A DNA stretch of 45,052 nucleotides from a virus (taxonomy: Duplodnaviria; Caudoviricetes), in IMG/VR virus record IMGVR_UViG_3300024187_000011, positions 1 through 45,052 of that record, one strand, 5' to 3'. Positions 14 through 44,498 of this stretch are shown piece after piece. The translations under genes and the position numbers were made by a program. Position 1 is the stretch's first letter. Each line of letters opens with the position of its first letter. The notes under the pieces were generated by a model. The model saw nothing but the letters and a program-made list of their open reading frames with translations. It was not told the DNA's origin and did not search any database.

Positions 14-554
14 GAAAGCGTTTCCAGTACTCCGCGGGCTTCCCGTACTTGCCGGTCGTGTCAGCTTTGTTGATAGCGAACTGCGGTTCGAACTGCCGAC
101 CTCCCCTGGACGGAAGCCGGTCGAAGTCTGGCCGGCGTTGCGCGTCTTCCGCGGATATCCAGCGGTAGCGATACTTCGACTCCCGGCTGTTGCAGCTCCC
201 CGACGCTTCGCCCATCAGCCGATCTCCGCGCCACAGTTGGCAGGTGTACCGATAGAAGAACAGCGCTTCGGTCTGGTCGGTTCCCCAGTCTTCGATGATC
301 TTCTCAGCCACGTATCGCGGCGCGAGTCCGAACAGCGAGCAGAGCTTTTCGGCGCCCGGCTTCAGCAGTTCCGGCTTCCCATAGCCCGGTAAGCTGCCAT
401 AGTCCAGCCCGTCGACCATCACCTTGGCGATGAAGGCGTTGAGTTGTTCCTTGCGCTCGATCGCCTGCTGTACGTTCAGGATCGGCTGGAAGTCTTGCGC
501 CGCGACTTCGCGGGCCTGCACAGTTAAGATTGCTTGCGATGCATCGGACATCAT
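1..554 (-). CDS. N-terminal part of putative single-strand annealing/recombination protein; runs off the left end and continues at the right end
   Basis: Own translation MMSDASQAIL...DYGSLPGYGKPELLKPGAEKLCSLFGL...FFYRYTCQL...GSCNSRESKYRYRW...; open to position 1; ATGA overlap with upstream gene; C-terminal half motif lies at 44476-45052. Confidence 0.7.
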   Translation of the reverse strand, partial: MMSDASQAILTVQAREVAAQDFQPILNVQQAIERKEQLNAFIAKVMVDGLDYGSLPGYGKPELLKPGAEKLCSLFGLAPRYVAEKIIEDWGTDQTEALFFYRYTCQLWRGDRLMGEASGSCNSRESKYRYRWISAEDAQRRPDFDRLPSRGGRQFEPQFAINKADTTGKYGKPAEYWKRFRDES

Positions 555-817
555 GCCGCTCCGTATGCTTCGGTCGCTGTTGTGACATCGGCGATCGAGT
601 TGCTGTCAGTGACCTGGCGCCACACTTCAAATCCATTTCCACCGGGATAGATTTGCACGATGATTCGCGGGCAACCGGGATTTTCGCGCCGCTGCAACAT
701 CTCGAACCTGTGCCCACCGTCTTCCCAGGATTGCAGCGAACGCCAGCCACGACAATGCAGGTCAGAGATAAACGCGCGAGCTTGCGCATCGCGATCAACT
801 TTCTTGGTTGCTGCCAT
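551..817 (-). CDS. Hypothetical protein
   Basis: 88 aa ORF with GAGGA RBS, stop overlaps next start. Confidence 0.7.
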   Translation of the reverse strand: MAATKKVDRDAQARAFISDLHCRGWRSLQSWEDGGHRFEMLQRRENPGCPRIIVQIYPGGNGFEVWRQVTDSNSIADVTTATEAYGAA

Positions 818-920
818 GTTATCCTCGTTTCGTTATTTGATTCGGACACCCCGGGCCTGCGGGGTTAGGCTCCCACAAGCCCGGTCACTCTCGGCCGCTC
901 CCCTACAAATGGGCCGATAC

Positions 921-1103
921 TCAGCGATGCGGTATTACGTCGGTCAGCTTGTCGCATGACTCGCAACGCGCTACCCGCATCAAACCACTTTCGCGAAGCG
1001 CTGGCATTGCAGCCGCGCACGCGGAACACAACATCCGCGGTTCATCCAACGGCTCCAGCAGCCAATCGTAGTCGGTCAAGCTGTCGCCGAAATAATCGCT
1101 CAC
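921..1103 (-). CDS. Small Zn-ribbon-like protein
   Basis: CSAC...CESC; overlaps stop of upstream gene. Confidence 0.55.
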   Translation of the reverse strand: MSDYFGDSLTDYDWLLEPLDEPRMLCSACAAAMPALRESGLMRVARCESCDKLTDVIPHR

Positions 1104-1582
1104 GCTTCACGCTCCACAATCTGCTGAATCATCCGACCGTAGGCCGCTGCCGTGCTCGATCCGGTTCCGCCGTAGCCCCAGCCGCCGCGCACGAACATGC
1201 AGGTAACTTCGCCTTCGACTTCGCCGCCGTGATAGAGCGCTATGTGGTCCGCACTGAACGCGCATTCATCGATGGTCGGAAGCGTTGCCGCGAACTCGCG
1301 GAAGTTTTCGCGCTCTTCGGTCGTCAGCGATCCATCCGGAAGCAAGCGCGGCATGATGTCTTGCCCGTCTGAGAAGACTCCCGCGTTGATCAACTCCAGA
1401 GCGATGTGGCGGTTTTCGGTGCAGGACATCGCGCCCCACCGAAGATCGCGCCGCGAAGAGATGTAGCGCGCGCCGGTCGCTTTCTTGTCGGCTTCGGTCG
1501 TGCGCTCCCACCACAGACGCGCCGCAGTGTCTTCCTCGGGGGTTACGCTCCAGATATCCGTTCGTTCTGCTGTCGTTTCCAT
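1100..1582 (-). CDS. Hypothetical early protein, leaderless
   Basis: 160 aa ORF whose ATG lies 6 nt after the -10 box of the repeated promoter. Confidence 0.75.
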   Translation of the reverse strand: METTAERTDIWSVTPEEDTAARLWWERTTEADKKATGARYISSRRDLRWGAMSCTENRHIALELINAGVFSDGQDIMPRLLPDGSLTTEERENFREFAATLPTIDECAFSADHIALYHGGEVEGEVTCMFVRGGWGYGGTGSSTAAAYGRMIQQIVEREA

Positions 1583-1634
1583 GTAGCAAGTATGCTCCTG
1601 GATATCCGTGGGTTCAATAGTACTTTGACCTTAG
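1583..1634 (-). promoter_or_regulatory. Sigma70-type leaderless promoter with GGATATCC in spacer (copy 1)
   Basis: CTAAGG-N11-TTGAAC-17 nt-CATACT-6 nt-ATG on minus strand. Confidence 0.8.
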
Positions 1635-1649
1635 AAACATACCCAGGTA

Positions 1650-1883
1650 CTAGCTAAGGCGTTTTGCTGGGGGATTGGCTTCGTTGAACTTGGCTTTTGC
1701 GTTCTCAATCGCGAGATATCCAGGGCAACAGTCGCTCAGATCCGCCGTGCACTTGTCGGCATAGCTGTCCAGTTTGGTCTCGCAACGCGCGCAGATCGAT
1801 TGCAACTCGCCCAATTCCTGAACGACAAATGCTAGCTCAGCCTCCAGCCGAGGAGACAGCCGCAAGCCCTTCACCTTCGCCAT
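1650..1883 (-). CDS. Hypothetical Cys-containing protein
   Basis: 77 aa, coupled to upstream gene. Confidence 0.6.
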   Translation of the reverse strand: MAKVKGLRLSPRLEAELAFVVQELGELQSICARCETKLDSYADKCTADLSDCCPGYLAIENAKAKFNEANPPAKRLS

Positions 1884-2164
1884 TACTTGCCCACTCTCGC
1901 GCTGTTCTTCACAATCAAATTCCTCACCAGCGCGGATTTGGATATCCCATGCTTTGAGGCATTCCGGTCAAGCTGGCGATTCAGGGTTACCGGCAGAGAG
2001 ATCAGCACCTTGATCGTCTCGGCCTTCGTCTCCGGAACGTGCATCCGGGTCGGTTTGACGATGTGCTTGCGCGCTTTCTTAATCGCGCCGGCCAGCAGCT
2101 TCACACTCAGCGCCGGCTTCATCTTGCCTTCGCGCATTTTCTTGAGTACTTCGGATCGTTTCAT
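1883..2164 (-). CDS. Ribbon-helix-helix (CopG-like) DNA-binding protein
   Basis: C-terminal KVLISLPVTLNRQLDRNASKHGISKSALVRNLI matches the RHH pattern; GAAGGGG RBS. Confidence 0.7.
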   Translation of the reverse strand: MKRSEVLKKMREGKMKPALSVKLLAGAIKKARKHIVKPTRMHVPETKAETIKVLISLPVTLNRQLDRNASKHGISKSALVRNLIVKNSARVGK

Positions 2165-2263
2165 TTTCCCCTTCCAGTGATGCGGCTAGGTTCGCCGCGA
2201 AGATTCGACAGCTTCTGCATAAGTGGTGCCCCGGATCGGCGTGTGCGTTGCAGGCTGTGCACT

Positions 2264-2680
2264 TCATCGGATGTTGATCTGCTTTCGCATCAGCCCGCTG
2301 GATTTGTACCACTCGACAAAGCCTTCGATGGTTGCCGGGAAGTCGACGCCCGCGATGAGTGTCAGCGCGCCGCGTGCGCGCTCGGCCTGGTGCCAGATTT
2401 GCTGGTGCGATTTTACAGAGGTCGCTTTCTTGAACCGCACGCGTTTCCATTCGATCCACATCACCTGATCAAGCAGTATCACGCGCGAAGTTAAGATGCT
2501 CACCGGGTCGTGCCGCTCGCCTTGGCGATAACGGATGTACAGGTGATCTGCCATTCCCTTTTCCCCGAATCCCTTACCCCACTCACGACGCGATACCGGA
2601 TCGGTGCGCAGCGCCCGCCAACCATCCAACTCCAGCATCTGCGTGCAGGTCTGCTGAATCTGCGCCTCGGTCGGTTTCAT
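2264..2680 (-). CDS. VRR-NUC-like PD-(D/E)xK nuclease / putative Holliday junction resolvase
   Basis: TEAQIQ...GEKGMADHL...WIEWKR...SHQQIW...RGALTLI pattern. Confidence 0.65.
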   Translation of the reverse strand: MKPTEAQIQQTCTQMLELDGWRALRTDPVSRREWGKGFGEKGMADHLYIRYRQGERHDPVSILTSRVILLDQVMWIEWKRVRFKKATSVKSHQQIWHQAERARGALTLIAGVDFPATIEGFVEWYKSSGLMRKQINIR

Positions 2681-2859
2681 GACACCAGCACCACAAATAC
2701 AGGATTGTTGCTGTCCGGATATCTGATCTTGGTATCGCGGATTGAGACGGGTTGATAATCCAGTTGGTTGTGCATGTCTGTCGTCTCCAGCACAAGAGGG
2801 AGGTTGCCCCGCATGGCGCGGATGCGCTGCAACTCTTCGATTGCATCATCAATTTTCAT
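2677..2859 (-). CDS. Hypothetical protein
   Basis: MKIDDAIEELQR..., 60 aa, coupled to downstream gene. Confidence 0.55.
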   Translation of the reverse strand: MKIDDAIEELQRIRAMRGNLPLVLETTDMHNQLDYQPVSIRDTKIRYPDSNNPVFVVLVS

Positions 2860-2962
2860 AGCTTGCCCTTGATGCCGAATAAAACGGCCAACTTCACCGC
2901 TATGGCGATCACCATCAGCACCTGCACGGCACGCCTCAAGATGCGATTTATGCACGGCTCCG

Positions 2963-3127
2963 TCATAGCTTCGCGTCAAACTCCACAGTACACTTCAGAG
3001 GAGGCGTTGTTGCAGGCTGCGCAGTCGTCCAGTTCACACGTATCGTGCTCACCTGCATGCCCTGCTTGTACAGGTCCATCAACGCATCTTGAACCGCTGT
3101 TTTGGCTTGCGCCGGGGTCATTGCCAT
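2963..3127 (-). CDS. Hypothetical protein, leaderless
   Basis: MAMTPAQAKT...; preceded by TTGCAA-16-TAGGAT promoter-like sequence containing two RGATATCY copies. Confidence 0.5.
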   Translation of the reverse strand: MAMTPAQAKTAVQDALMDLYKQGMQVSTIRVNWTTAQPATTPPLKCTVEFDAKL

Positions 3128-3174
3128 GCTGGATATCCTATCATGGATATCTACGTTTGCAAGAGCCGGGAGTA

Positions 3175-3582
3175 CTAAACCACGATGAGTTGGTGATCCT
3201 GCGACTGCCACATGATTTCACGTGTGGCCCGGTTTGTGATAACGCATCCCTCGCTCGCGTCGTTCGCAGCGTTGTTTCCATGTACGAGGAACGAATTGGG
3301 ATCGCGCTTCAGCGAGAGGATGTGCGCCCGCGTTGCATCGTCCGGCTTCAGGCGAATCGAATACGGCCCGGTCTTGAGATGCATCAGAACCAATTCCGTT
3401 AAGGTGTAGGTCCCCGCAGGCAGCGGTCCCCCGGCTGTGATCTTGCCGTTGGTCATCGCGCCGTGCTCGCCTTCCTTCGCGGGATTGTTGCGAGCTGCGC
3501 CGTGTCCCGCGTAAGCCATGCCGGTCACGTGGCCCTGCGGTGCGATGATCTTACCAGCGGCGCGTTCAAATTTCCAGGGCAT
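3175..3582 (-). CDS. Tlde1/DUF2778-type L,D-transpeptidase-fold peptidoglycan enzyme (candidate endolysin)
   Basis: YAGHG...NNP...GPLPAGTY...FLVHG...ASEGCV with the His-x-SxGC catalytic motif; start chosen at MPWKF. Confidence 0.75.
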   Translation of the reverse strand: MPWKFERAAGKIIAPQGHVTGMAYAGHGAARNNPAKEGEHGAMTNGKITAGGPLPAGTYTLTELVLMHLKTGPYSIRLKPDDATRAHILSLKRDPNSFLVHGNNAANDASEGCVITNRATREIMWQSQDHQLIVV

Positions 3583-3626
3583 AAAAAAAGGGGGCGAGTC
3601 GAAAGTATTCTGAACCCGCTCGCCCC
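3583..3626 (-). terminator. Terminator-like hairpin plus T7 directly before the Tlde1 start codon
   Basis: GGGGCGAG...CTCGCCCC followed by TTTTTTT then ATG on minus strand. Confidence 0.55.
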
Positions 3627-3678
3627 ACAAGGAGCAATTGACCCGAATAGCGTATCACGAATCGTGTAGAATTGCGCC

Positions 3679-4164
3679 ATGAGATATCCAGGAATCAGGC
3701 TAGTACTTTGGATTGGTGCTCTGTGGCTCTGCTGCGCGATCGCACGTTGCCAGGTTATCAGCATCGACTGCGGATCACCCACGGATACCGCGTTCGTTGG
3801 CGGTACCGCGTACACAGACGCGACCATTGGGAGCCCGCCACTCAACGCCCTGCGTTACGGCGTGCGCTTCTCATACCGCGTCCCGGCGCCACCCGGCGTG
3901 TACCTGGTTAAGTTGTCCTTTGTCGAACCGAACGCGACAGCGGCTGGCCGGCGACTCTTCACTGTGACCATCAACGGCCAAACCTCGGACGCAATCGATC
4001 TTTTCAAAGAAGTGGGGCTGAAGGTCGAGCACGTGATTCAGACGACGGCGATATCGTACTGGGGATTCGTGAAGATCGACTTCGCCGGCGTCATCGGCAA
4101 TGCGGTTGTGACGCAGATCCAACTTGCCAAGTACCCGGTGGATGCGTTCAGAATTGGCTGGTGA
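3679..4164 (+). CDS. Secreted malectin-like carbohydrate-binding protein
   Basis: Hydrophobic signal peptide, then IDCGS...LRYG...FSYRVPAPPGVYLVKLSFVE...GRRLFTVTING...DLFKEVG...NAVVTQI malectin pattern. Confidence 0.75.
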   Translation: MRYPGIRLVLWIGALWLCCAIARCQVISIDCGSPTDTAFVGGTAYTDATIGSPPLNALRYGVRFSYRVPAPPGVYLVKLSFVEPNATAAGRRLFTVTINGQTSDAIDLFKEVGLKVEHVIQTTAISYWGFVKIDFAGVIGNAVVTQIQLAKYPVDAFRIGW

Positions 4165-4373
4165 GGCGCTTTTCTATAACTTTGCAGGCTCGCGCCATCG
4201 CTGCGAAAATGCGCCGCCCGCGAAGACTTCGCCGCTACCGGTGGAAGCCGCGTCCAGAGATCACAACCTGCTGGTGTAAGCGATGCTTCAAATGCCGCAG
4301 GCGCTATTACATGCGCCGCTGGCGTGCTCGCAAGCGATTCGACATCACGCCACTACTGAGTAAGTCAGCCTGA
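4161..4373 (+). CDS. Small Arg-rich protein with CxCxxC motif
   Basis: GTGA overlap with malectin gene, ends just before a hairpin terminator. Confidence 0.45.
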   Translation: MRRFSITLQARAIAAKMRRPRRLRRYRWKPRPEITTCWCKRCFKCRRRYYMRRWRARKRFDITPLLSKSA

Positions 4374-4377
4374 ACGC

Positions 4378-4413
4378 AAAACGACCCCGGATGTTGCGGA
4401 ACATCCGAGGTCG
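4378..4413. terminator. Intrinsic terminator between convergent genes
   Basis: CGACCCCGGATGTT-gcgg-AACATCCGAGGTCG hairpin with a T-run on the minus strand. Confidence 0.7.
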
Positions 4414-4444
4414 ATTGCTGCACGGGGACTGCCCCACAGATTGA

Positions 4445-4951
4445 TTACGGTACGTTCGGATCGATCGGCACGTCCGGTTGTTCAGTTACCGGCCCGGGCG
4501 TCAGAACAACGCTGGCCGCTTGACCGGCTGTTACATTTACCGCCAAGGTTCCGACCAACGGCACAACCCCAGCACCCAAATCCGCATCAGCAGAAAGAGT
4601 GATGGATGCCGAGCCGATCGCACCTACGGCTGCGACAGTTGCCGACATGCCATCCGGAGCCGCCGTCACCTTCAGAACATCGGTGTTGTCTGTCGACCAT
4701 TGAGGCGTCCCGTCTACGGGAGCCGGGTTCCCCTTCTTGTCGACAAAGGCCACTGAAACGCTGAATTGCTGCGTAATCGAGATATCCACTTTTGTTTTCC
4801 TTTCTCCATCCACGTAAAAGATTACTGCGCTCGCTTCGCCCGGCTTCAGCAGACCCAGGATCTCATCGCAGGTATCCTGAAGCGTTTTCAATCGCCTTAT
4901 CGTTTCGATTGAATTTCTAAAGATCGTATAGAGATATCCAAAGAAGTTCAC
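4445..4951 (-). CDS. Ig-like domain protein
   Basis: VAFVDKKGNPAPVDGTPQWSTDNTDVLKVT...DGMSATV...GSASIT bacterial Ig-like pattern. Confidence 0.6.
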   Translation of the reverse strand: MNFFGYLYTIFRNSIETIRRLKTLQDTCDEILGLLKPGEASAVIFYVDGERKTKVDISITQQFSVSVAFVDKKGNPAPVDGTPQWSTDNTDVLKVTAAPDGMSATVAAVGAIGSASITLSADADLGAGVVPLVGTLAVNVTAGQAASVVLTPGPVTEQPDVPIDPNVP

Positions 4952-4955
4952 GGGA

Positions 4956-5138
4956 TCAGAATATCACACGCAGCCCTTTGGGGAAAATGAAAAGCCGCTG
5001 CATCTCTGCAACGGCCCTCTCAACGTCGCGCTGGATCGTAGCCCGATCCGGCGCCCATGTCCCGATGGCCTGCGTGCCCCATGAGCCAGTGGCCCACAGA
5101 CCGCCATGCTTCTCGGAAACGTGGAAGCGAATCGTCAT
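4956..5138 (-). CDS. Hypothetical protein
   Basis: 60 aa ORF in a tightly packed minus-strand run. Confidence 0.5.
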   Translation of the reverse strand: MTIRFHVSEKHGGLWATGSWGTQAIGTWAPDRATIQRDVERAVAEMQRLFIFPKGLRVIF

Positions 5139-5804
5139 CTAATCAACCTTGTCGGCTCGCTCGAATTGCCCGTGCTGCATCAGTTGGAACCGAGCTTCAC
5201 CCGGTGCAGTTTTGCCGACCGGAATCCGGAAGCCGTAGGCGTCGACGCGCACGAGCGCACCGTTGAAGCCCGACGTATCCGATTCGTACTCCGTCTGCTG
5301 GTTCCAGTTCTGCCGTGGGTTGCCGGTCGGCGTCATGCCGGCTGTGATCATCAGCGGATAGGCCGTGGCGTCGATACCGAGGCTGAACCGCGGCCCGCTC
5401 TGCGTCGGATCTTCCACCCACAACTGACGCGGTGGAGCGCCGCCGCCCGCTATATACGCGTCCAGGTCGAATACCGGGAAGTCATCCGGATTCGTAGACT
5501 GCGGCGTGATGCGGTTTTTCTCGACGTCCGGGAGTTTGTAGCCGACGACGTACTTGACGCCCTGCCGCACGCGCTGCGCCATCACAGCATCGACGCCCTC
5601 ATGCCGACCGAGCACCAGCACTTCATCGACCGGGATTCCGTCCAGTGCGCACTGCTCGACCAATTTCAAAACGCGATTGTTCGCGTCGGCTGTGCTCTGA
5701 ATGAGCATGATTTCGGCAACGCGCGGGTGAAGGTATTGCGCCCAGGCGTTGTAAAGGTTACTGCGTTGTGCGCTGTAGAGCGACGGATACGGCTTATAAG
5801 ACAT
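5139..5804 (-). CDS. Hypothetical protein
   Basis: 221 aa, AAGGA RBS, typical codon usage. Confidence 0.75.
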   Translation of the reverse strand: MSYKPYPSLYSAQRSNLYNAWAQYLHPRVAEIMLIQSTADANNRVLKLVEQCALDGIPVDEVLVLGRHEGVDAVMAQRVRQGVKYVVGYKLPDVEKNRITPQSTNPDDFPVFDLDAYIAGGGAPPRQLWVEDPTQSGPRFSLGIDATAYPLMITAGMTPTGNPRQNWNQQTEYESDTSGFNGALVRVDAYGFRIPVGKTAPGEARFQLMQHGQFERADKVD

Positions 5805-5983
5805 TGGTGATCCTTTCCAGTACTGACTTTGCGTTTCAGGATATCCCGGATCTTTTGCGGCGTCAACCTAGCGCCACGATCCACTCGGTATCTTAGAGAA
5901 GATCCTAGCCAGCCGGATACGTGCTGCGGCTTCGCGAATCAGACGAGCGAGTACGGCGTTGCGTTCGTTCACAAGTGCGCTAT

Positions 5984-6295
5984 TCATTTTTTCTCCACTG
6001 GAATGTGAACCAGTTCCAGCGTGTCTCCTTCGTTCATCGTAACCGGCTTGTCGAACAGGACATCGTTGATGCCGGTTATTTGCATCGGCGTGACGATCTG
6101 CAAACGCTGAGTCATTTCCCCGGCCTGCCTGAATGTGATCTGCTGCATGGTCGATAGCTTGGCTCCTCCGTGACGCGGGCATGGTCCGCCGCCGATACGC
6201 TTCGTGTTCCAGAGGCAATTTGGCGTTGGGCAATAATCCTCCGGGTGCTTCGCCTTGTTCGCTGCGACCTTCGCCGCTACTTGTCCGCGATTCAT
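5984..6295 (-). CDS. Hypothetical protein
   Basis: 103 aa, GGAGGGAG RBS. Confidence 0.65.
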   Translation of the reverse strand: MNRGQVAAKVAANKAKHPEDYCPTPNCLWNTKRIGGGPCPRHGGAKLSTMQQITFRQAGEMTQRLQIVTPMQITGINDVLFDKPVTMNEGDTLELVHIPVEKK

Positions 6296-6567
6296 CGTTG
6301 CTCCCTCCGAAAGCGGATCACCGCTTCAATCCACGCGTTATAACATGCGATGCGCCAGAGGCTCCCGGCCTTGGCGAAGCCGCACTTGTAAACCTGCTCA
6401 TCGGCTTGAATGAACTGAGTGCGCGCGATGCGTAACTGCTCACGTGCGGTCATCGTCAAGGTCCTCCATTCTGCGCTCGAACCAGTCAGCGCGTCGGTGA
6501 TCGGTAGACTTTGGGATTGCGCGGATGCCGAACCACAGCGCGATTGCCGCTACCAGAATGAAGAGGA

Positions 6568-6753
6568 TCATATCGTGAACACGTCCACCCGGAAGTGTCC
6601 CTCGTTAACGAACTCGACGCAGTTTGCCGCGAAGATATTGCGTTCGCGAGTAGCGTAGCGCACCAGAACAGTGGCCCGCGAAATACCATCACTGAAAGAG
6701 AATGATCCGGCTACCGGCATCGTTTTTGCTTCGGCGTATGTGATCGGTTGCAT
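6568..6753 (-). CDS. Hypothetical early protein, leaderless
   Basis: ATG 6 nt after the -10 box of the repeated promoter. Confidence 0.65.
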   Translation of the reverse strand: MQPITYAEAKTMPVAGSFSFSDGISRATVLVRYATRERNIFAANCVEFVNEGHFRVDVFTI

Positions 6754-6805
6754 GAACCAATAATGCGCTGGATATCCGCACAGTGCAATCGGTAAATCGC
6801 CTTAG
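6754..6805 (-). promoter_or_regulatory. Sigma70-type leaderless promoter with GGATATCC in spacer (copy 2)
   Basis: CTAAGG-N11-TTGCAC-17 nt-CATTAT-6 nt-ATG. Confidence 0.75.
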
Positions 6806-6815
6806 TGTCCTAGTA

Positions 6816-7145
6816 CTATCGTTTGGATTTGGTGTTGTCTGCGATGCGCCCGCCGATTTCGGCGATCTTCTGATTTACTTCGTTCGCTTCTTTGTAGGCG
6901 TCGTCGGCTTTGGCTGCTGCGATCACAGAGACGGCGGTATTTTCGTCCAGCTTTTCCGTCTGCCGGTCGAGTTTTCCTGCCATCAAATTGCGATGGTCAG
7001 CCGTGAGCTTCGCGGCAAGTTCCCGGTCTGCGCGGTCCTGCTCGCGATCGAGACGCCGCCGCCGTTCATCGAAGTGACTCTTGACGATGTTGCCGAGTAG
7101 CGCGGCTACCGTCGTAATCAAGAGCGCGGTCGTCGTGGCATCCAT
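6816..7145 (-). CDS. Membrane-anchored coiled-coil protein (possibly lysis-associated)
   Basis: N-terminal TM (TALLITTVAALLGNIV) then charged helix; start MDATTT after GATAAT -10-like box. Confidence 0.6.
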   Translation of the reverse strand: MDATTTALLITTVAALLGNIVKSHFDERRRRLDREQDRADRELAAKLTADHRNLMAGKLDRQTEKLDENTAVSVIAAAKADDAYKEANEVNQKIAEIGGRIADNTKSKR

Positions 7146-7164
7146 TCGCGCGATTATCGCACGA

Positions 7165-7317
7165 TCAGGCTGTGACCATCGTGGACAGCACCCACGCTGC
7201 AAGGCCCGCGTTTGTCAGGCTCCATCGGTACGGATTGGGATCGGCACGCTAGGCAGCAGCCACGATGAAGCAAACCAGCGCAAGGCATCTGAGAATGAGG
7301 GACCAAGGTGCGTTCAT
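7165..7317 (-). pseudogene. Small two-TM membrane protein interrupted by an in-frame TAG
   Basis: MNAPWSLILRCLALVCFIVAAA*RADPNPYRWSLTNAGLAAWVLSTMVTA; TAG at 7249-7251. Confidence 0.55.
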
Positions 7318-7388
7318 GCCCCAAGCGTCGCACATTGAAACACCCAGCGCTAGCGGGGTATCCCCCAAATGCTATGCTGTTGGATTCC

Positions 7389-8036
7389 ATGCCCGAGCTG
7401 CTTTACACAGCCTTTGCACTCGCCGCGGGCTCTCTATTCTGGCGATGGTGCCACGTCGGACTGAATCGCGATCACGGATATTGGGCCGGATACCTCGCGC
7501 ACCTTCCCCTCGCAGCTTTCGCATGGGCCTTGCAGCTCTGGGACACCTCCCGCTGGATATCCGTGCTCGGCAACTTTGGCCTGATCTGCTGCGCCTTTGA
7601 AGCTGCGCGAGCCTGCGGGTGGTGGATCATCCCCCAGCTTGAACGCAGATGGGTGCTGGTTTCTGCCGGTGGGGTCGGTCTGTGGATGTCCGCAGCAATC
7701 GCGTCAGTGATCGAAATCCCGAACGATCAGAACTGGACGCACTACCTCATCAAGGCGTGTGCGCCGGCGTGCGCGATCGGCATCATCGTCTCGGCGTGGG
7801 CGTATCAGCGAATCGCAATGGATCGCGGCGCGAACAATTCCCGGAACGCATGGCACGCTTGGTTGCTTGCCGGATACTGCGCACTCAATGTCTTCAATGC
7901 CGTGTTTTATTGGCATCCCAGCGAGCCGGCATGGGCCTTGCAAACCGGAGTGACCGTGACGCTCAAGATCGGTCTGTTTATCTGCTGGTGGTTCAAGGTC
8001 TGCCCGCTCCATCATCGCCGCGCCCTACCAGTTTGA
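7389..8036 (+). CDS. Polytopic (about 7 TM) membrane protein
   Basis: Multiple hydrophobic segments; start MPELL after TGC-TATGCT -10-like box. Confidence 0.75.
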   Translation: MPELLYTAFALAAGSLFWRWCHVGLNRDHGYWAGYLAHLPLAAFAWALQLWDTSRWISVLGNFGLICCAFEAARACGWWIIPQLERRWVLVSAGGVGLWMSAAIASVIEIPNDQNWTHYLIKACAPACAIGIIVSAWAYQRIAMDRGANNSRNAWHAWLLAGYCALNVFNAVFYWHPSEPAWALQTGVTVTLKIGLFICWWFKVCPLHHRRALPV

Positions 8037-8220
8037 GCAGACATCGCTTGAACCGGGTTTTCTTCCTGCGAAGATGAAGTCGCTTTTCGCGTTTCTCGCC
8101 CTCGGTCTTGGCCTTCAATAACCCGAGCGCGGCCGTCGCGAGCCCGATAAGCGAAGTTATCGCGCTGACCGTTTGGCCCCAGACATCCCACCAATTTTTA
8201 TGATCCTGGGGCGCGTCCAT
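7993..8220 (-). CDS. Single-TM protein with basic C-terminus
   Basis: MDAPQDHKNWWDVWG...TM...KREKRLHLRRKK; GGGGAG RBS. Confidence 0.6.
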   Translation of the reverse strand: MDAPQDHKNWWDVWGQTVSAITSLIGLATAALGLLKAKTEGEKREKRLHLRRKKTRFKRCLLKLVGRGDDGAGRP

Positions 8221-8230
8221 GCTCCCCGCG

Positions 8231-8389
8231 TTACGGATTCGTGCCGGGTCCACCCGGAGGGGGCGGTCCTCCGGATCCACCTTCGTTCGGCGGATCGTCT
8301 TCGGTTCCGGTGTACGGTTTCTTTGGGGGCTTCGACGGGGGTTGCTTCGGCTGTTTCGGATCGAGCGGAGGTTTTGGTTTGTCCGACAT
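8231..8389 (-). CDS. Proline/glycine-rich 52-aa peptide
   Basis: MSDKPKPPLDPKQPKQPPSKPPKKPYTGTEDDPPNEGGSGGPPPPGGPGTNP; TAGAAT-N7-ATG leaderless signal. Confidence 0.6.
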   Translation of the reverse strand: MSDKPKPPLDPKQPKQPPSKPPKKPYTGTEDDPPNEGGSGGPPPPGGPGTNP

Positions 8390-8411
8390 GCGGACTATTC
8401 TAGCGGAATTA

Positions 8412-8702: not shown

Positions 8703-8941
8703 CGCACCCTCCGCAAACGATTCTTGAACTCCACTGCCGCCAGAAAATACAGCGCGTGCAGCCGGGTTGCTTCGCTCAACTCACCTTTAGGATATCCCGC
8801 TTTCTTAACCACTGCGGACCAGAACGGCCCTTGACCGAGCGCGACTTTCTGAGCATCCACGAACCGCACGCCTTCTTCATGCATCACACGCGCCATCGCG
8901 AGCGCTTTCACGATTCGATTGCTGGCTTCTTGGTTTGTCAT
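8699..8941 (-). CDS. Hypothetical protein
   Basis: 80 aa in early operon. Confidence 0.6.
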   Translation of the reverse strand: MTNQEASNRIVKALAMARVMHEEGVRFVDAQKVALGQGPFWSAVVKKAGYPKGELSEATRLHALYFLAAVEFKNRLRRVR

Positions 8942-9175: not shown

Positions 9176-9227
9176 GCATCAAGTATGCTCCTGGATATCC
9201 TGCGGTGCAATCGGTTGAACACCTTAG
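9176..9227 (-). promoter_or_regulatory. Sigma70-type leaderless promoter with GGATATCC in spacer (copy 3)
   Basis: CTAAGG-N11-TTGCAC-17 nt-CATACT-6 nt-ATG; 21-nt core CAAGTATGCTCCTGGATATCC identical to copy 1. Confidence 0.8.
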
Positions 9228-28340: not shown

Positions 28341-28350
28341 CTCGGATATC

Positions 28351-28545
28351 TTACGTCAACTGTCGCGTGATCCGCACGACGACCTTACGGCAGCGCGGGC
28401 CGGCTTTCGTGTCCAGCTTGCCTTCCAGTTCGCGGGTCATGGTTCCACACCGATACACTGCGACACCGCCCCACATGACGCCGGCTCGTTTTTGGTCGCA
28501 GTTCGGGCACGTTTCCGGAAGAGTGACAACGGCTGTCTTTTCCAT
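28351..28545 (-). CDS. Small Cys-containing protein
   Basis: CPNC...YRCG...C; downstream of a -10-like TATCCT with tandem RGATATCY. Confidence 0.5.
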   Translation of the reverse strand: MEKTAVVTLPETCPNCDQKRAGVMWGGVAVYRCGTMTRELEGKLDTKAGPRCRKVVVRITRQLT

Positions 28546-28599
28546 AACGGCTCCACACCGTCAAGGATAGCAGATATCTGGATATCTGCGTGTAGGACG

Positions 28600-34210: not shown

Positions 34211-34343
34211 GCGCCTCCAATGTCTCTCCGATCGCTGAGGCCGAGCCGTCGGAGGACTCGCATTCTCTGAACAGCTCGGCTGCGTTCGCATCGGAAGAAA
34301 ACAAACGCACTGGCATCATACACAGATATCCTTTACGTAGCAA
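34211..34343 (-). promoter_or_regulatory. Promoter and structured 5' leader of RRM gene
   Basis: TTGCTA-17-TATGAT with GGATATCT in spacer; leader stem GCCGAGCTGT/ACGGCTCGGC inside outer TCCGAT/ATCGGA stem. Confidence 0.6.
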
Positions 34344-36170: not shown

Positions 36171-37659
36171 GCTTGATCAGCTCCATGCCGTAGTTGTTCG
36201 GATCTTCTGAGACTTCCAGGCCGGGCTTCGGAATGAACTTGTTCGCCTTGAACGGTCGGTAATCAACTTGGTGCTGCCAGCGTCCCCACTTCCGAGTGAT
36301 CGTCACAACGTCGGGGTGCTGGTCGCGAAGTGACTCGGCCATCTTCGTGCGGCCGTCGCCTTTGTACAACTCATCGGTATTCCCGCCTTTCATTTTCATG
36401 GTTTCCATTTTCCAGGACAGGAACGCGTTGAACTGCACCGTACACCAGCCATCTTTCAGCGCTCTCAGTGACAGGTCGGTGTCTTCGTTGTAGCGCCCGC
36501 GCCAGCGGTAAGGAATGTCGTTTTTGATCAGGATGCACGAATAGATCCGCGTGTTAGCGACAAACGGCGGCAGCTTCTGTTTGCGCTTCGCCAGGAATCG
36601 ATAGTTGAAGCCAGCCAGCGCGACGTTCGTATAGCGCTCGGCGAAGTCTTCCGCAGCGAGAAAAGCAGCGCCGGTTTTCATCTGGATTCGCAGGTTATTG
36701 TGGAGCCGCAGGAACTGGCTGATATTGTCGTCCAGAATCCAGTGGCGAGCGTGCCCTTCGCTTACCGAGTGCTCCCAAACCCAATTACGCGCCGGTATCG
36801 AGCCTTGCCCCAGGTTGCTGAACGGAAGCACCAGGATCTTAGCCGGATCGAGTACGGCGGCGTACTCTTCGCGCTCTTGCGGCTCGATCACGATCCGATA
36901 GGGCACGTGCATGGCTTCCAGAGCTTTGCTGGTGAGTCTGGTTTGCCACCGGCCTTTCGAGATGATGTAGACCGGATATCTCGGGTCGGTCGGCTTCGGC
37001 GTCGAATAGGCTTTGTCGGCTACCTTGGCTTCTTTCGCCTTGGGGTGCCATACGAATTTCGTTGAATCGGTGATTGTCTGGCCGATGAGCTTTCCGAACG
37101 CGATGCGGTCGGCTTTCTTTTCAAAGTGCACCTTGACGGTCTGCCACGGCATCAGGTCGTCTTGCTTGAAATCCGGCATCCCCTTCCATTCGGGCTTGAT
37201 GCCGTTCAACAGCCCGTCGATCTGCATCGACTCGAACCCCGTTAGGCTCAGATCGAGATTCAGCCCCTGCAGCTCTGTGAACTCGCCGGCGAGAATACCT
37301 AGGTCCCAGGTCGCTTCTTCATGCGACCGGTTATCCATCAGCCGGTAGGCTTTGCGCTGCGCCGCGGTCAAGCCGTGCGCAACGTGCACCGGAACAAGTG
37401 CCAGGTCGAGGGACTGTGCCGCGAGTAACCGGGTGTGCCCTACCAGAATCGTGTCATCCGGCTCGCAGACAATCGGTTGCCGCCATCCGAACTCTTTTAA
37501 GCTGGCTGCGACTTTCGAAACCGCCCGGTCGGATATCTTCCGTGCGTTCTTAGCGTAAGGCTTCGGTCGGTCGATGGGCCACCATTCGATTGCGAAGACG
37601 TTCGTTTTTTCTTGTTCGGACAGAATCGGAGGGTTTGGGGTTGAAGTTTTGCGCGGCAT
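36160..37659 (-). CDS. ParB/Srx N-terminal domain fused to GREB1-like / TET-associated glycosyltransferase
   Basis: N-terminal PYAKNAR...SLKEFGWRQPI...LVGHTRLLAA...YRLMDNR; C-terminal YPVYIISKGR...IEPQE...ARNWVW...HWILDDNI...WRGRYNEDTDLSLR...GGNTD. Confidence 0.85.
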   Translation of the reverse strand: MPRKTSTPNPPILSEQEKTNVFAIEWWPIDRPKPYAKNARKISDRAVSKVAASLKEFGWRQPIVCEPDDTILVGHTRLLAAQSLDLALVPVHVAHGLTAAQRKAYRLMDNRSHEEATWDLGILAGEFTELQGLNLDLSLTGFESMQIDGLLNGIKPEWKGMPDFKQDDLMPWQTVKVHFEKKADRIAFGKLIGQTITDSTKFVWHPKAKEAKVADKAYSTPKPTDPRYPVYIISKGRWQTRLTSKALEAMHVPYRIVIEPQEREEYAAVLDPAKILVLPFSNLGQGSIPARNWVWEHSVSEGHARHWILDDNISQFLRLHNNLRIQMKTGAAFLAAEDFAERYTNVALAGFNYRFLAKRKQKLPPFVANTRIYSCILIKNDIPYRWRGRYNEDTDLSLRALKDGWCTVQFNAFLSWKMETMKMKGGNTDELYKGDGRTKMAESLRDQHPDVVTITRKWGRWQHQVDYRPFKANKFIPKPGLEVSEDPNNYGMELIKHVK

Positions 37660-37728
37660 CTGGTTGAGGCTGTAGCGGCTTACAGCTTACCAGATATCTA
37701 AATTGGTGGGGTACGTTTTGTCGCAGTT

Positions 37729-38046
37729 TCAGTCCGAGATGATCACCCAGGCGTTGCGACCGCTGCGCGTTTGCCGGCGTTCTGCCGTCTTAATTGCCAG
37801 TTTCATCTGCACCAACTCTCGCAATCGAGCGCTTACAGTCTGATGGCGCATTTCGAGCGCTACTTCGATTTCGTCGGACGTGCCCCCGGTCGCGCCGCGA
37901 TCCTTCAACCATTGCAGGATCTGGTTGCGTAGCCGTGACTTATCAGGATGAATCGATTCGTTCGCTTCCTCGCTGCATTCGTCCCCGCCGTGAAACGCCC
38001 GGCATACGTCGGGCGTTGGCTCATCGAAAAGGCTCGGCTGCTTCAC
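37729..38046 (-). CDS. Winged-helix DNA-binding protein
   Basis: GGTSDEIEVALEMRHQTVSARLRELV...RRQTRSGRNAWV. Confidence 0.8.
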   Translation of the reverse strand: MKQPSLFDEPTPDVCRAFHGGDECSEEANESIHPDKSRLRNQILQWLKDRGATGGTSDEIEVALEMRHQTVSARLRELVQMKLAIKTAERRQTRSGRNAWVIISD

Positions 38047-38522
38047 TGGTACCGGTTGATCGTGTGCGTCGGCTCGCGCCGTTGCGGTTGCTGAACTCTT
38101 CGCAGGATATCCGCTAAGTCAATGACGTGCATAGCGTGATCACACTTTCGGAACACTTCAAGCATCGCTTCGCCGTTCGTGACGACGCACGCCGCCCGCT
38201 GCGTGCTGCCAGGTGTCGGGTCTACGACGAGCCACAGTTCGTCGCTAAAGTTCATGAGCCTGTCGAAATCCATGTGCTTCCAGCACTGGCGCTGCATCTG
38301 CCGCAGTGGGCGCCGGATGGCCTGCAGGCTCAGCCCGCGCTTTCGCAGCTCGGCGATGACTGCGATGTCGACAGCTTCCTGGTTCGAGTAGATCCGTCTG
38401 TGGCCGTGATGATGCGGTTGCACGACGCGCTTTTCGTCCCACCATTGAAGCTGCCTGAGTGAAACGCCCGCAATGCTGGCTACCTGGTTCGTTGAAAGTG
38501 TTTGGTGTGTCATGTGAAACAT
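38043..38522 (-). CDS. MerR-family HTH transcriptional regulator
   Basis: STNQVASIAGVSLRQLQWWDEK...HRRIYS...ELRKRGLSLQAIR. Confidence 0.85.
   Translation of the reverse strand: MFHMTHQTLSTNQVASIAGVSLRQLQWWDEKRVVQPHHHGHRRIYSNQEAVDIAVIAELRKRGLSLQAIRRPLRQMQRQCWKHMDFDRLMNFSDELWLVVDPTPGSTQRAACVVTNGEAMLEVFRKCDHAMHVIDLADILRRVQQPQRREPTHTINRYQ
38506..38521. promoter_or_regulatory. Second parS-like site (degenerate)
   Basis: TGTTTCACATGACACA on minus strand, 14/16 to TGTTTCACGTGAAACA, overlapping the MerR start. Confidence 0.45.
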
Positions 38523-39398: not shown

Positions 39399-40270
39399 GC
39401 TTTCCTCTCCACGCCAGTTCCTTTGCAGGTGGGGCATACCCTAACATCATCGGTGTACTTCTTGACTCTGAATGGACGGCCCCCACACTCAGGGCAAAGT
39501 ACGCTTTTAGTAACGCCTTTTTCTTCTACGACACGACCACTGGTCTGCGCGTCGGCTTTCTCTGGTCGTTCCCCGGATAGAACGGTGTCCGCATCAACCA
39601 GTTGAGGCTCCTTGTCGTACTTTGGTCCGAAGATATTCCGCACGAATGCGAGAAGGTTGCGGAGTGCTGTTCGGAGCGCCTCCGCTTCGCGCTGGGCGGA
39701 TTCTCGCCACGTTTTCTCCGTGCGAAAGCCTTCACGATAAGTGGTCAGGTTGTCGCGTTCCTGCGTCAATGTATCCCGATCGCGCTCCAATCGCACCAAG
39801 TTTTCCCCGCTACACGATGCGAGCCATTCGCAGACCATGCAGCCGACCGTGCCGGGTAATCGCTCTTTGTGCGTTTCGCAAATTCCGCGCTCCAGTTGCT
39901 CCACGCGGGCCTCATATGCTTCCAGTGCTGCATTCTTCAGGTCGATGGTAGCGAGCGCATCATCGGGGCACAGATGGCAGCCCAGCGCTTGCACAAATGC
40001 GTCCACGCGGGCCTGGAGCCGCGCGGTTTCGTTGAGTGCCGCTGCCAATTCTTCGGCGTCGGTAATGCTCTGGACATACTTGCCATCGCAGAAAAGTTGC
40101 TCACCTTGGGCCGTGTAACCTCCGGCCTGCCTCCTGGATTTATTCAGCACGTCACAAACTTCGTTACGCAATGCCTCCGAACACCACGCGTTGAAGTGAG
40201 CTAGAGTTGCGCCGTCTCTCTGCAGCTTGAAATTATCGAGGGTGTACCGCGCGTTCTCCTGGGGAGTCAT
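39395..40270 (-). CDS. Coiled-coil protein with C-terminal CxxCxG Zn-finger
   Basis: Start at MTPQE; CPECGG...CPTCKGTG. Confidence 0.6.
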   Translation of the reverse strand: MTPQENARYTLDNFKLQRDGATLAHFNAWCSEALRNEVCDVLNKSRRQAGGYTAQGEQLFCDGKYVQSITDAEELAAALNETARLQARVDAFVQALGCHLCPDDALATIDLKNAALEAYEARVEQLERGICETHKERLPGTVGCMVCEWLASCSGENLVRLERDRDTLTQERDNLTTYREGFRTEKTWRESAQREAEALRTALRNLLAFVRNIFGPKYDKEPQLVDADTVLSGERPEKADAQTSGRVVEEKGVTKSVLCPECGGRPFRVKKYTDDVRVCPTCKGTGVERKA

Positions 40271-40545
40271 GCCCATACGTCGTAATCTCCACATCCAGCG
40301 ACAAGCGCACGGCATACTTCGATCAGCAGGCTTTCGTCTTGAATTGAGGCAATCGAGTCGCTGATCCGAATGATCTGCCACTCGTGAAGATCCTCCGCAA
40401 GGCTGTGACCGTCCTGGTATTCCAGGAAGTCGCAATGGTCCGGGAATCTCTTTTTCAGATAGTCCACTACGAGCACCGCCGTGCGCTGCTTTCGCGCGCA
40501 TCCGATGATGTGATTAATTTGTTTCGGCTCCTGGGGCTCAGCCAT
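40267..40545 (-). CDS. Hypothetical protein
   Basis: 92 aa, coupled on both sides. Confidence 0.6.
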   Translation of the reverse strand: MAEPQEPKQINHIIGCARKQRTAVLVVDYLKKRFPDHCDFLEYQDGHSLAEDLHEWQIIRISDSIASIQDESLLIEVCRALVAGCGDYDVWA

Positions 40546-42310: not shown

Positions 42311-42399
42311 GTCATCCCCCCAAGGATGCGGGCCGAGCGTTGGGGCGCCCGGCCCTATGGTTCATCTCTCGCCAGGTGTCCGGCGATTCAAGCAGTCTA

Positions 42400-42885
42400 T
42401 CAGTTCGCCGGCAGCTTGCCTTGCTTGTCGTCTTCCGGCGTCTCTGTGAGCGTCCCCTGCTTCGGCTGGGGCTCGTGGCTGATCGTCACCGACGATTTAC
42501 CCTTGCCGCAGTGAATCTTGAACTCTTCCAGATACCGGCATCCGGTCGGATCGTTGAAGTCGACCGTGAAATGCAACTCCCACCGGTGACCCTTGCCGCG
42601 CTTGCCTTCGACTTCGTACTTCACCAACTCGAAGCCGTACACAGTCGTGATGTCGATTTCGATGGTGAACTTTTCCAGCGGGCCGTCGCTGGGTTTGATC
42701 GTCATCTTGCGGCCGGTCAGTTCGCCTTCGAGCTTGCTGCTTTTCTGATAGTCAACTACTTCGCCCCACTCCATCGCTTCTTTGATGGCGTTGGTGTAGC
42801 TCGCGCTGAACTTCGCCGAGCCTGAAGAATCGCCGCGGCTGAACGATTTCAGCACAGCACTGGTAAACGTAACGGTCTTAGTCAA
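42400..42885 (-). CDS. Hypothetical protein
   Basis: 161 aa, TTG start with AAAGGA RBS, strong codon bias. Confidence 0.7.
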   Translation of the reverse strand: MTKTVTFTSAVLKSFSRGDSSGSAKFSASYTNAIKEAMEWGEVVDYQKSSKLEGELTGRKMTIKPSDGPLEKFTIEIDITTVYGFELVKYEVEGKRGKGHRWELHFTVDFNDPTGCRYLEEFKIHCGKGKSSVTISHEPQPKQGTLTETPEDDKQGKLPAN

Positions 42886-42920
42886 TGGGATATCCTTTCG
42901 TCCAAGTTGAAAACGCCTGA

Positions 42921-43139
42921 CTACTTTATCCGAAGTGGTTTCGATTGTCCAGTGGCTTTGTGCTCAAACGGGCATGGCGTGCCGTGCTGCGCAAACCATG
43001 TGCAATCCAACAGCGGCTTGTTATGCACGCTGATCAGCACGTGTGCTGCGCAGTCGCGACACCACGGCTCATTAGGTGAGCAGCACTGACGCCCGCAGCA
43101 TCCACAAAAATCATTCTTGCCTCGAACGAAATCGTTCAT
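42921..43139 (-). CDS. Small Cys-rich protein
   Basis: CGCCG...WCRDC...CPF; ATGA coupling. Confidence 0.55.
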   Translation of the reverse strand: MNDFVRGKNDFCGCCGRQCCSPNEPWCRDCAAHVLISVHNKPLLDCTWFAQHGTPCPFEHKATGQSKPLRIK

Positions 43140-43870
43140 TTGATTCTGAGATGTTCTCCGCGGTCAAGCAGTACCGCGCCTGGTACCGATCCAACGTAAA
43201 CGCGGCATGTGTCTTTGCATAGTGCGCACGGCCCCGGCTGCGGATCTTCGGCATACGCTGTGCAATTGGGGCACGGTCCCTCTACCATCAGATCCTTGCG
43301 GATTAGTTCAGTGTCCGGTTCGATCGGCTTAGCTTTTTCCTTCACAAGCCGATCAGTCCACGCGCACGTGATTTCCAACTCTTCTTTTTCGATTCCCGTT
43401 ATCGTCAGTGTGTAGCGCTGGTACTTCGCCGGAAGTAGCTCAGGTTGCCTCACTTCTACCGGCTGCGCTCCGCCGTTGCCCCACCGCCGCAGTTCGCTGA
43501 CGTCGCCCTTGACGAACTTGACGCCGAGCTGCTGTAGAACTTCAAGCGCAATTGCCTTGACGCGATCGGCGCGGGCTTCGCGAGCTTTCGCCAGGTCGTA
43601 GCACCGATCAGCTTCCGCCTTCGCGGTTGCGGCGCCGCCCTCTTCGGATCGGATGAACGCCGCGACCCCATCGGCTTTCTTGACCAGTTCCGTGACACAG
43701 AGACGCAGCGCGGTTTCGCACTGGTCCACAACATCCTTGGCCTGCGCGAACTCAAGCGCGGTCCCGTGAAGCAACGCGGCATCGCGCAACTCAATCAAAA
43801 CTTCGCGCTGCGAAACAAGATCCGCGAGCAGAGAGGGGAACTCTCTGAATGTTAAGCTATGCTCGCTCAT
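43136..43870 (-). CDS. Siphovirus Gp157-like protein with Zn-finger insertion
   Basis: KADGVAAFIR...AKAEADR...PELLPAKYQ...PDTELIRKDL...VPGAVLLDRGEHLRIK. Confidence 0.75.
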   Translation of the reverse strand: MSEHSLTFREFPSLLADLVSQREVLIELRDAALLHGTALEFAQAKDVVDQCETALRLCVTELVKKADGVAAFIRSEEGGAATAKAEADRCYDLAKAREARADRVKAIALEVLQQLGVKFVKGDVSELRRWGNGGAQPVEVRQPELLPAKYQRYTLTITGIEKEELEITCAWTDRLVKEKAKPIEPDTELIRKDLMVEGPCPNCTAYAEDPQPGPCALCKDTCRVYVGSVPGAVLLDRGEHLRIK

Positions 43871-44082
43871 GTGATCAGCGCTCCCTGTTTGTCGTCGCCG
43901 CGTGGCTTTCCGGCGTCGGCGCGTTCGCTCCGCAGCTTGATACCGCTCTTCAGTTTTGCGATGGGCTCGCGCAGGTGCGCCGCGAGTGAATCACCGTCTA
44001 CAGTTTCCAGTTCCCGCAATAGGAACCGAGCATTTTCAAGGCGCGCCAGGTCCATCACGCGCGAATACTCTTCGTTGGTCAT
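43867..44082 (-). CDS. Hypothetical protein
   Basis: MTNEEY...RSERADAGKPRG; ATGA coupling. Confidence 0.55.
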   Translation of the reverse strand: MTNEEYSRVMDLARLENARFLLRELETVDGDSLAAHLREPIAKLKSGIKLRSERADAGKPRGDDKQGALIT

Positions 44083-44498
44083 TTGCCCCTTTCGGCTGCG
44101 TACTGAGCACGCAGCGCCGCGATGATTTTCAAACGGTTCAATCCGTACTTCTTCCAGAATGCTTTGCCGATCTGGTGATCCAGTTCGTGATGATGCGCCC
44201 GGCATCCGGGTAGCGCTGTGTGGTCCGATGCCTTCTGAGATATCCCGTGCGGCCCGGTGTGCATCGCCTCGGAGTATATCTGCGGGAGCCTTCGCATTAT
44301 GAAAATGCCCTTGTTGCCTTCGCGCGCCCACAGCATGAACGCACTGCGCCAACACGCGATGCACGGCCACAGCCTGATCCATGCGAGATACTTCGGATCG
44401 CGCGCCGGTCCCGTTCGCAACACCGACGCGCGTTTCCGCTGCGGCTTGCCCCTGTTCGGCCGCAGAGCCGTAGGCTTACGCTTTGGTTTTTTCTGCAC
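44079..44498 (-). CDS. HNH-like Zn-binding nuclease (DUF968-like)
   Basis: RDPKYLAWIRLWPCIAC...EAMH...GISQKASDHTALPGCRAHHHE...FWKKYGL. Confidence 0.75.
   Translation of the reverse strand: MQKKPKRKPTALRPNRGKPQRKRASVLRTGPARDPKYLAWIRLWPCIACWRSAFMLWAREGNKGIFIMRRLPQIYSEAMHTGPHGISQKASDHTALPGCRAHHHELDHQIGKAFWKKYGLNRLKIIAALRAQYAAERGK

Follow-up and report, generated by a model that had tools for sequence, protein, structure and literature searches.

The DNA considered here, which we call the window, is the whole 45,052-bp stretch of IMG/VR record IMGVR_UViG_3300024187_000011, a siphophage, and it is strewn with one palindromic octamer, RGATATCY. We counted 44 exact copies (0.98 per kb), made up of 16 GGATATCC, 25 GGATATCT/AGATATCC and three AGATATCT, together with 12 other GATATC; an earlier note on this DNA had put the figures at about 43 and about 10, and the coordinates that it listed are all correct apart from 44239, the true start of that site being 44238. 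The word is real, phage-specific, and promoter-linked. We consider it probable that RGATATCY serves as operator for a predicted ribbon-helix-helix (RHH) protein that the phage itself encodes (1883-2164), and that this operator has been spread genome-wide.

None of 100 dinucleotide shuffles reaches 44 copies (mean 1.09, largest 4). The earlier note had proposed that selection acts on the DNA word and not on the protein, and this is supported by protein-preserving synonymous shuffles (300 of each kind), in which the 34 coding matches compare with 5.5 expected when codons are shuffled within a gene (largest 13) and 4.3 with genome-wide codons (largest 10). The excess also persists in the codon-aware check that the note had suggested, which, after correction of the gene set, counts 32 sites in coding sequence vs. 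4.1 expected from codon usage. The tripeptides that it read at intragenic copies (WIS, GIS, KIS, EIS, and QIS) are correct, but the ATA codon accounts for only nine of the 34 coding matches, the remainder being read as GGA/AGA TAT C (12) or GAT ATC (13). Among 11 classes of single-substitution variants, none is clearly enriched (the best, CGATATCY, stands at 7 vs. 2.8, p = 0.02), and the flanks of the sites are nearly information-free, with one of 24 positions tested giving p = 5e-4. The asymmetric variants of the word are split 16 vs. 9 on the coding strand, and no 10.5-bp phasing was seen among the 12 shortest site spacings. GATATC is the most over-represented 6-bp palindrome of the window. 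As a separate observation, 6-bp palindromes are otherwise strongly avoided window-wide (median observed/expected 0.60), and GAATTC, AGATCT, GAGCTC, CTCGAG, and CGTACG are absent, as would be expected under restriction pressure.

Most copies lie inside genes:

Intragenic sites, first half of 32: 153, 1552, 1714, 1940, 2717, 3682, 4780, 4932, 7555, 8790, 8965, 11949, 13384, 17131, 20586, 23989
Intragenic sites, second half of 32: 25948, 27852, 29343, 29812, 30699, 32567, 33417, 34018, 35492, 36051, 36974, 37531, 38105, 38767, 40601, 44238

Their position within genes is uniform (Kolmogorov-Smirnov p = 0.42). The tripeptides GY[PL]/RY[PL], which permit the word in phase 0, occur 18 times vs. 7.1 expected (largest 17 in 300 shuffles), with smaller excesses for the tripeptides allowing the other two phases (23 vs. 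13.6 and 18 vs. 13.8); the phase-0 excess hints at amino-acid changes made for the word. As the earlier note had remarked, sites are sparse in the tail module: the head-tail block 9234-28064 holds seven in 18.8 kb (0.37 per kb), compared with 0.8-1.8 per kb elsewhere (binomial p = 2e-4). Of the possible intragenic positions, 25/37 are used outside this block vs. 7/21 inside it (p = 0.015), as if every affordable site were favoured. Non-coding DNA makes up 7% of the window, yet holds 12 of the 44 sites (p = 4e-5), a count that takes 3131 and 3145 as non-coding by way of a start moved to 3127. There is one tandem pair, and the other 42 sites have no adjoining exact copy. Non-coding sites outside the predicted promoters described below are as follows:

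28344..28351: site directly before the start of 28080-28340
28572..28587: two head-to-tail sites, repeating every 8 bp exactly, 27-35 bp upstream of 28351-28545
37692..37699: site 33 bp upstream of the ParB-TAGT/terminase genes, where no good promoter is predicted
42888..42895: site flanked by a Shine-Dalgarno-like stretch and the start of 42400-42885

The likely host is an Acidobacterium, based upon the titles of two GTDB portal relatives (contigs of Ca. Sulfotelmatobacter and of uncultured Acidobacteria) and on the only two MerR relatives with a taxon name (Terriglobales and Bryobacteraceae). Across 401 genomes of this phylum (Acidobacteriota, to which genome G001 belongs), the highest density of RGATATCY is ~0.21 per kb, the rates being approximate and taken from a table by eye; G001 and G002 have about 0.04-0.05 per kb. 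A host-wide background, which the earlier note had raised as a possible cause, is thereby rejected for the sampled phylum. Its other suggestion, a count in related phages, gave 0-4 copies in each of 20 portal-related virus records counted whole and 0-3 in the remaining 14 of the 34 portal loci, counted as loci only, these relatives being distant (33-45% portal identity). A closer locus (L229, 52% portal identity) has no site in 1.7 kb, a length too short to weigh. Across 151 genomes from the class, matches of the word to promoter geometry number 22 vs. 23 in a shifted control, with at most one match per genome, whereas the window alone gives 3 vs. 0; these host tallies include the unpublished genomes G029, G054, G157, and G516, the last contributing one match to each of two scans.

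Wider scans yielded candidates that we rejected. A promoter-layout scan of IMG/VR returned 32 loci, mostly AT-rich chance matches, with no close relative shown and none above 0.74 sites per kb, and a triple-site scan returned 119 loci from 30 of 64 parts, which are local repeats without genome-wide enrichment. Similarly, the 15 sites in 18.8 kb of G425 (6.1 expected) are mostly a local repeat. Two unrelated phages do have a GATATC-cored palindrome in the spacer of a leaderless promoter (L043 at ~9970-10038 and L062 at 248-285); in L043, TAGGATATCCTA occurs twice within ~50 bp, and the whole 68-kb record holds 15 RGATATCY.

Predicted promoters, the candidate reader, and relatives

Seven sites lie within six predicted promoters, which were scored with a model trained solely on 24 hexamer pairs from relatives:

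1583..1617, minus strand: predicted leaderless sigma-70 promoter TTGAAC-17-CATACT-6 nt-ATG(1582), score 12.4, site 1600-1607 wholly in the spacer
3128..3162, minus strand: predicted leaderless promoter TTGCAA-16-TAGGAT-7 nt-ATG(3127), score 13.3, two sites
5838..5866, minus strand: predicted promoter TTGACG-17-TATCCT, score 10.9, site 5839-5846 overlapping the -10 box, preceding 5139-5804
6754..6788, minus strand: predicted leaderless promoter TTGCAC-17-CATTAT-6 nt-ATG(6753), score 12.5, site 6770-6777 in the spacer
9176..9210, minus strand: predicted leaderless promoter TTGCAC-17-CATACT-6 nt-ATG(9175), score 12.8, site 9193-9200 in the spacer
34315..34343, minus strand: best-scoring predicted promoter TTGCTA-17-TATGAT, score 16.0, site 34324-34331 in the spacer

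All six are within the model's top 12, a seventh match being site 9193 read on the opposite strand. Six of the top 10 candidates hold a site (0.41 expected, p = 9e-7), and 34 control 7-mers of like abundance average 0.41 of the top 20 with a maximum of 3, compared with 7 for the word. Five sites lie wholly within spacers, outside the hexamers, and therefore cannot raise the score; their promoters score 12.4-16.0, a level reached by 0.13% of 3000 random positions. We infer from the model that the six promoters are active. The first precedes 1100-1582 and small genes running to the phrog_10048 gene, and the promoter at 9176..9210 is 86% identical to it over 43 nt; that at 34315..34343 precedes an RRM gene and the glycosyltransferase cluster. 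At 3128..3162, site 3145-3152 lies in the spacer and site 3131-3138 over the -10 box and start region, and this, the only predicted promoter with two sites, precedes the operon that contains the RHH gene. A second conserved block, TAGTAC...CTAAG, was also noticed upstream of -35 at 1629-1650, 6800-6815, and 9222-9236 (minus strand), and at 4875 of relative G419; it is a possible UP element or second binding site.

The candidate reader and its surroundings are:

1883..2164, minus strand: predicted RHH protein of 93 residues, with strand IKVLISL and a basic N-terminal extension; candidate reader
1650..3127, minus strand: predicted operon comprising 2963-3127, 2677-2937, nuclease-like 2264-2680, a 35-codon open reading frame (ORF), RHH gene 1883-2164, and 1650-1883

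The reading frames of 1650-3127 touch or overlap, from which we infer co-transcription. The 35-codon ORF has no site, and the RHH coding sequence itself holds site 1940-1947. The two sites in the predicted operon promoter are suggestive only of an RHH protein that binds and represses its own promoter. The 1883-2164 protein has a CopG-like PHROG match (E 2.4e-4), a BrnA match below threshold, and, in five of five family members, a Pfam RHH_1 match under the cut-off (E 0.003-0.06). It conforms to the strand-helix-helix sequence pattern, and its Atlas RHH neighbours (0.87-0.89, below 0.9) are leads only. RHH strand residues read DNA bases, and all seven homologs (54-75% identity) retain K-V-L-I-S in the strand; P0217 was removed from the homolog set as a repeat protein. 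In a monomer model, both helices have a predicted local distance difference test score (pLDDT) of ~90, and CopG, HicB, Arc, NikR, and MazE chains fill most Foldseek rows. The homodimer prediction scored 0.35 against a mark of 0.42, and a PDB sequence search with the RHH alignment gave no match. The window contains one RHH-profile match. The earlier note had named this protein, a winged-helix protein (37729), and a MerR-like protein (38043) as ones to test for binding; the operator role is supported, and the RHH protein is the best candidate of the three.

Leaderless sigma-70-like promoters and RHH-like genes recur in the relatives. G419 has the same order as the window (RHH, promoter, small genes, phrog_10048 gene) and a matching TAGTAC-TTTCTAAG upstream block, and its promoters carry TTGCGCAA (13 copies) where the window has RGATATCY. 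An RHH strand of the form K-x-[SA]-x-[FY] is found in G419, G414, G413, G410, G004, and contig G001:C17, each of which has 4-13 copies of TTGCGCAA, with TTGCGCAA or a one-letter variant at the RHH gene's own predicted promoter. At least four copies are present in all six of these genomes vs. one of 16 others (p = 9e-5). In a 22-row portal tree, this strand/word label needs four changes, at least three of them forced (44 of 500 shuffles are as low), so that it does not mark one tight clade; the window's own branch is long and its placement unsure. Other strands are paired with ATTGCGGCATG and GCACGTGC (G003 and G407, respectively), and a third strand with CTTAC/GTAAG boxes (G408 and G417). In eight further records, none of the five tested words occurs in the top 12 promoters. 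The relatives' operators are few (4-13) and often tandem, the neighbouring copy at 8 bp being degenerate, with 3.18 of 8 matches at offset 8 vs. a background of 2.0 (41 sites), and relative to these, it is the 32 intragenic copies of the window that are unusual.

Enriched words of G003, G004, and G418 were dropped as tandem coding repeats; these genomes have long tandem repeats (G003 40136-40508, G004 4144-4531, and both ends of G418, with units of 12, 9, and 6 bp) that are likely to be coding. G410 (L203, L204) has a dispersed HIP1-like word (CGATCGCG, 19 vs. 2.6; GCGATCGC, 13 vs. 1.2). Back-to-back leaderless promoters with overlapping -35 regions occur in G417 (5922/5932) and G418 (43517/43529); the pairs resemble switches, and one of the G417 promoters drives an RHH-like gene.

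Weighing the explanations

In the explanation that we favour, the RHH protein would bind each RGATATCY palindrome as a dimer and would repress the six site-bearing predicted promoters, its own operon's included. It would also occupy the 32 intragenic copies, which may have accumulated mainly where protein constraint is weak; through them the repressor would reach across the genome, elongation would be dampened, and the pool of free repressor would be buffered. Active promoters, an RHH dimer, binding, and repression are thus all presumed in this scheme. The role of the intragenic copies is its least certain part; roadblock, repressor sink, and self-marking are all conceivable.

Several observations count against an RHH operator. 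The promoter layout, TTG(A/C)AC-17-CAT(A/T)(C/A)T with ATG 6 nt on, was first noticed by eye at sites 1600, 6770, and 9193, and the remaining 37 sites have spacers no better than chance (p = 0.16), so that the intragenic sites do not fall in cryptic promoters. Every RHH family match of the 1883-2164 protein is below its curated cut-off; the monomer model draws the would-be ribbon as a helix, with no strand, and no Foldseek hit is significant (best E 1.1). The pairing of an RHH protein with RGATATCY itself is seen in one genome. Among the relatives, the strand grouping was set up after the data had been seen, two of its members are weak matches (E 0.05 and 0.65), and several of the 16 others are fragments. 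G412 (64% complete), the one of these 16 with at least four copies, has five TTGCGCAA and no K-x-[SA]-x-[FY] RHH was found in it; in G421, which has a QINVP-type RHH, the 12 best promoters include no CTTAC/GTAAG pair; and TTGCGC itself is a common -35 box in these phages. Unlike the relatives' tandem operators, the window sites are mostly single, with no tandem excess at offset 8 over all 44 (2.53 of 8 matches vs. 2.42). Finally, all-or-none exactness is commoner for an enzyme than for a repressor.

It is unlikely, in our estimation, that the word is an operator read instead by the winged-helix protein (37729-38046) or the MerR-like protein (38043-38516). DNA binding is predicted for both, sites 38105, 38767, and 37692 lie in and beside their genes, and MerR-type regulators bind promoter spacers. 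However, MerR-homolog phage loci have no sites in 20 kb (38% identity) or in 7.9 kb (31%), G417 (28%) has four in 48 kb, neither gene has a predicted site-bearing promoter before it, and the spacers here are 16-17 bp, whereas MerR activation typically involves a 19-bp spacer. About equally unlikely is that a DNA-modifying enzyme (a host methyltransferase, or the phage ParB-TAGT or DUF5131 protein) acts on the word and leaves a mark by which promoters are tuned or phage DNA is recognized as self, as the methylation target put forward in the earlier note would have it. Such an enzyme would suit an exact palindrome without enriched near-matches, in a window where GATATC tops the over-represented 6-bp palindromes and several others are absent; the window moreover encodes a DUF5131 protein and a TET-associated glycosyltransferase domain that is present in none of the 14 whole relatives compared. 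On the other hand, the three DNA methyltransferase families searched in six frames of the window (N6_N4_Mtase, MethyltransfD12, and phage Dam) gave no match, C5 methyltransferases having been looked for in ORF scans only; a PADLOC type II methyltransferase match covers only the ParB-like part; and a weak mad2 match corresponds to a small methyltransferase of class I in which no DPPY/NPPY motif is visible. There is also no host enrichment among the sampled genomes of the phylum, though the enzyme might be strain-specific, and at the same promoters the pattern in the relatives is that of a repressor with its operator.

We regard as very improbable a host transcription factor or nucleoid protein that reads the word, plugging the phage promoters into a host regulon: the promoters are of the host sigma-70 type, and it was a sample of the class, not the host itself, that was searched, yet that sample shows no surplus of promoter-geometry matches over the control, and the 20 related phage records are nearly devoid of the word. 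The faintest chance of all goes to a HIP-like mutational process (from highly iterated palindrome) writing the word genome-wide with no regulatory role. Sites in all phases, their uniformity within genes, and the GY[PL]/RY[PL] surplus would fit it, but the sites strongly favour promoters and non-coding DNA, the word is not enriched in any host sampled from the phylum, and the three phage family searches found no cognate methyltransferase.

An RHH operator has a more far-reaching form, which we find doubtful: that, once its DNA-reading strand had changed, a small autoregulatory RHH repressor of a non-integrating Acidobacteria phage came to coat the whole genome, with promoters, codons, and some amino acids rewritten into 44 single 8-bp landing sites that silence or mark the genome, for example against superinfecting kin. 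If so, RHH strand residues and DNA words would be linked across the family by a natural code. Over-represented phage palindromes are usually without a known reader. Here, the word is located in promoter spacers, a protein of 93 residues is a candidate to read it, and in relatives a different reader type goes with a different word, so that the RHH operator can be tested by one binding assay. Should it be true, dozens of codon changes can be driven by a repressor whose site is no longer than 8 bp, there is a second route to stoperator-like genome-wide control, and we gain an initial look at how genes are controlled in a family of uncultured phages whose hosts are likely Acidobacteria.

Genome context

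The phrog_10048 family gene reads in frame across both ends of the window, and the record is therefore likely a complete circle; its own annotation is linear and 60% complete. The minus strand carries nearly all genes, in the order terminase, glycosyltransferase/methyltransferase cluster, portal, protease, capsid, tail, and then small genes. Two genes are on the opposite strand: 3679-4164 (plus), for a secreted protein with a malectin domain, its start codon running into site 3682, and 7308-8036 (plus), for a multi-pass membrane protein, which holds site 7555. No tyrosine integrase or resolvase was found in six frames of the window or in four complete relatives, and the window gave no tRNA or Rfam matches.

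Glycosyltransferases and small methyltransferases form a cluster between the terminase and the portal (28600-33996, minus); the cluster is common to most portal relatives and likely serves virion or DNA glycosylation. Between it and the terminase lies a stand-alone RRM RNA-binding protein (33923-34207, minus; Pfam RRM_1, NCBIfam Rbp_regulator), whose gene sits behind the best-scoring predicted promoter and which was not found among 14 whole relatives. The protein of 36160-37659 (minus) fuses a ParB-like domain to the TET-associated glycosyltransferase domain, and four relatives match its ParB part only; no ParA was seen in the window ORF scans. There is a strong hairpin at 4382-4413. The contigs that align over 1-12000 are fragments of relatives, with 517 differences, and one from run X3 skips 8941-9171; it may come from a relative in which different DNA replaces gene 8948-9175 behind the same promoter.

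Comparison with known systems

The earlier note had likened the sites to mycobacteriophage stoperators. According to PMC9283540 and PMC6550527, Cluster A phages (L5, Bxb1, and TipsytheTRex) have a repressor with operators and stoperators, the latter being asymmetric 13-bp sites that follow the direction of transcription and lie in short intergenic spaces, and the reader is a monomeric protein of temperate phages with helix-turn-helix (HTH) and Stoperator domains. Shared with that description are one phage word in at least 20 copies genome-wide, some in promoters (in the window, 44 and seven), and a word that differs between related phages along with the repressor. The analogy is only a loose one, in that the window word is an 8-bp palindrome without orientation, mostly (32/44) inside genes, with a predicted RHH reader and no integrase or resolvase found. 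PHROG and Pfam scans of 84 and 30 window ORFs, respectively, revealed no HTH plus Stoperator-domain repressor. By their defining features, the window system is neither a stoperator system nor a HIP.

Phage repressors of the RHH class include Arc and Mnt of P22. The viral RHH repressors F55 (SSV1), SvtR (SIRV1), and AvtR (AFV6) act on several promoters, including their own, and bind 4-8 sites at or near promoters, in tandem or as imperfect repeats (PMC5569661). The window resembles them in having a small predicted RHH protein and sites at several viral promoters, its own included; dozens of exact intragenic sites are not described for them in the part of that source drawn on here. MetJ, which the same source names as RHH, offers another comparison: its met box, AGACGTCT, occurs as two to five contiguous variable boxes per operator, and S-adenosylmethionine is needed (PMC12925634). 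An 8-bp palindromic box of the form RGAnnTCY is common to both, as is a tandem 8-bp period, seen at 28572/28580 of the window and in the relatives' TTGCGCAA operators. In contrast to MetJ, nearly all window sites stand alone and the candidate reader has no evident ligand domain.

HIP1 and the alternate HIPs of cyanobacteria are, as described in PMC4390886, host-genome-wide, GC-rich, and accompanied by a cognate methyltransferase. The window word is likewise an 8-bp palindrome far above chance and intragenic in all phases, but it is AT-cored, promoter-biased, and confined to one phage, with no methyltransferase found in three families and no high frequency in the 401 sampled genomes of the likely host phylum. 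We found no earlier account of this word or system in a literature search that left subscription journals largely outside. What is new is a word inside the best predicted promoters, an RHH candidate reader, and relatives that pair similar predicted repressors with other words.

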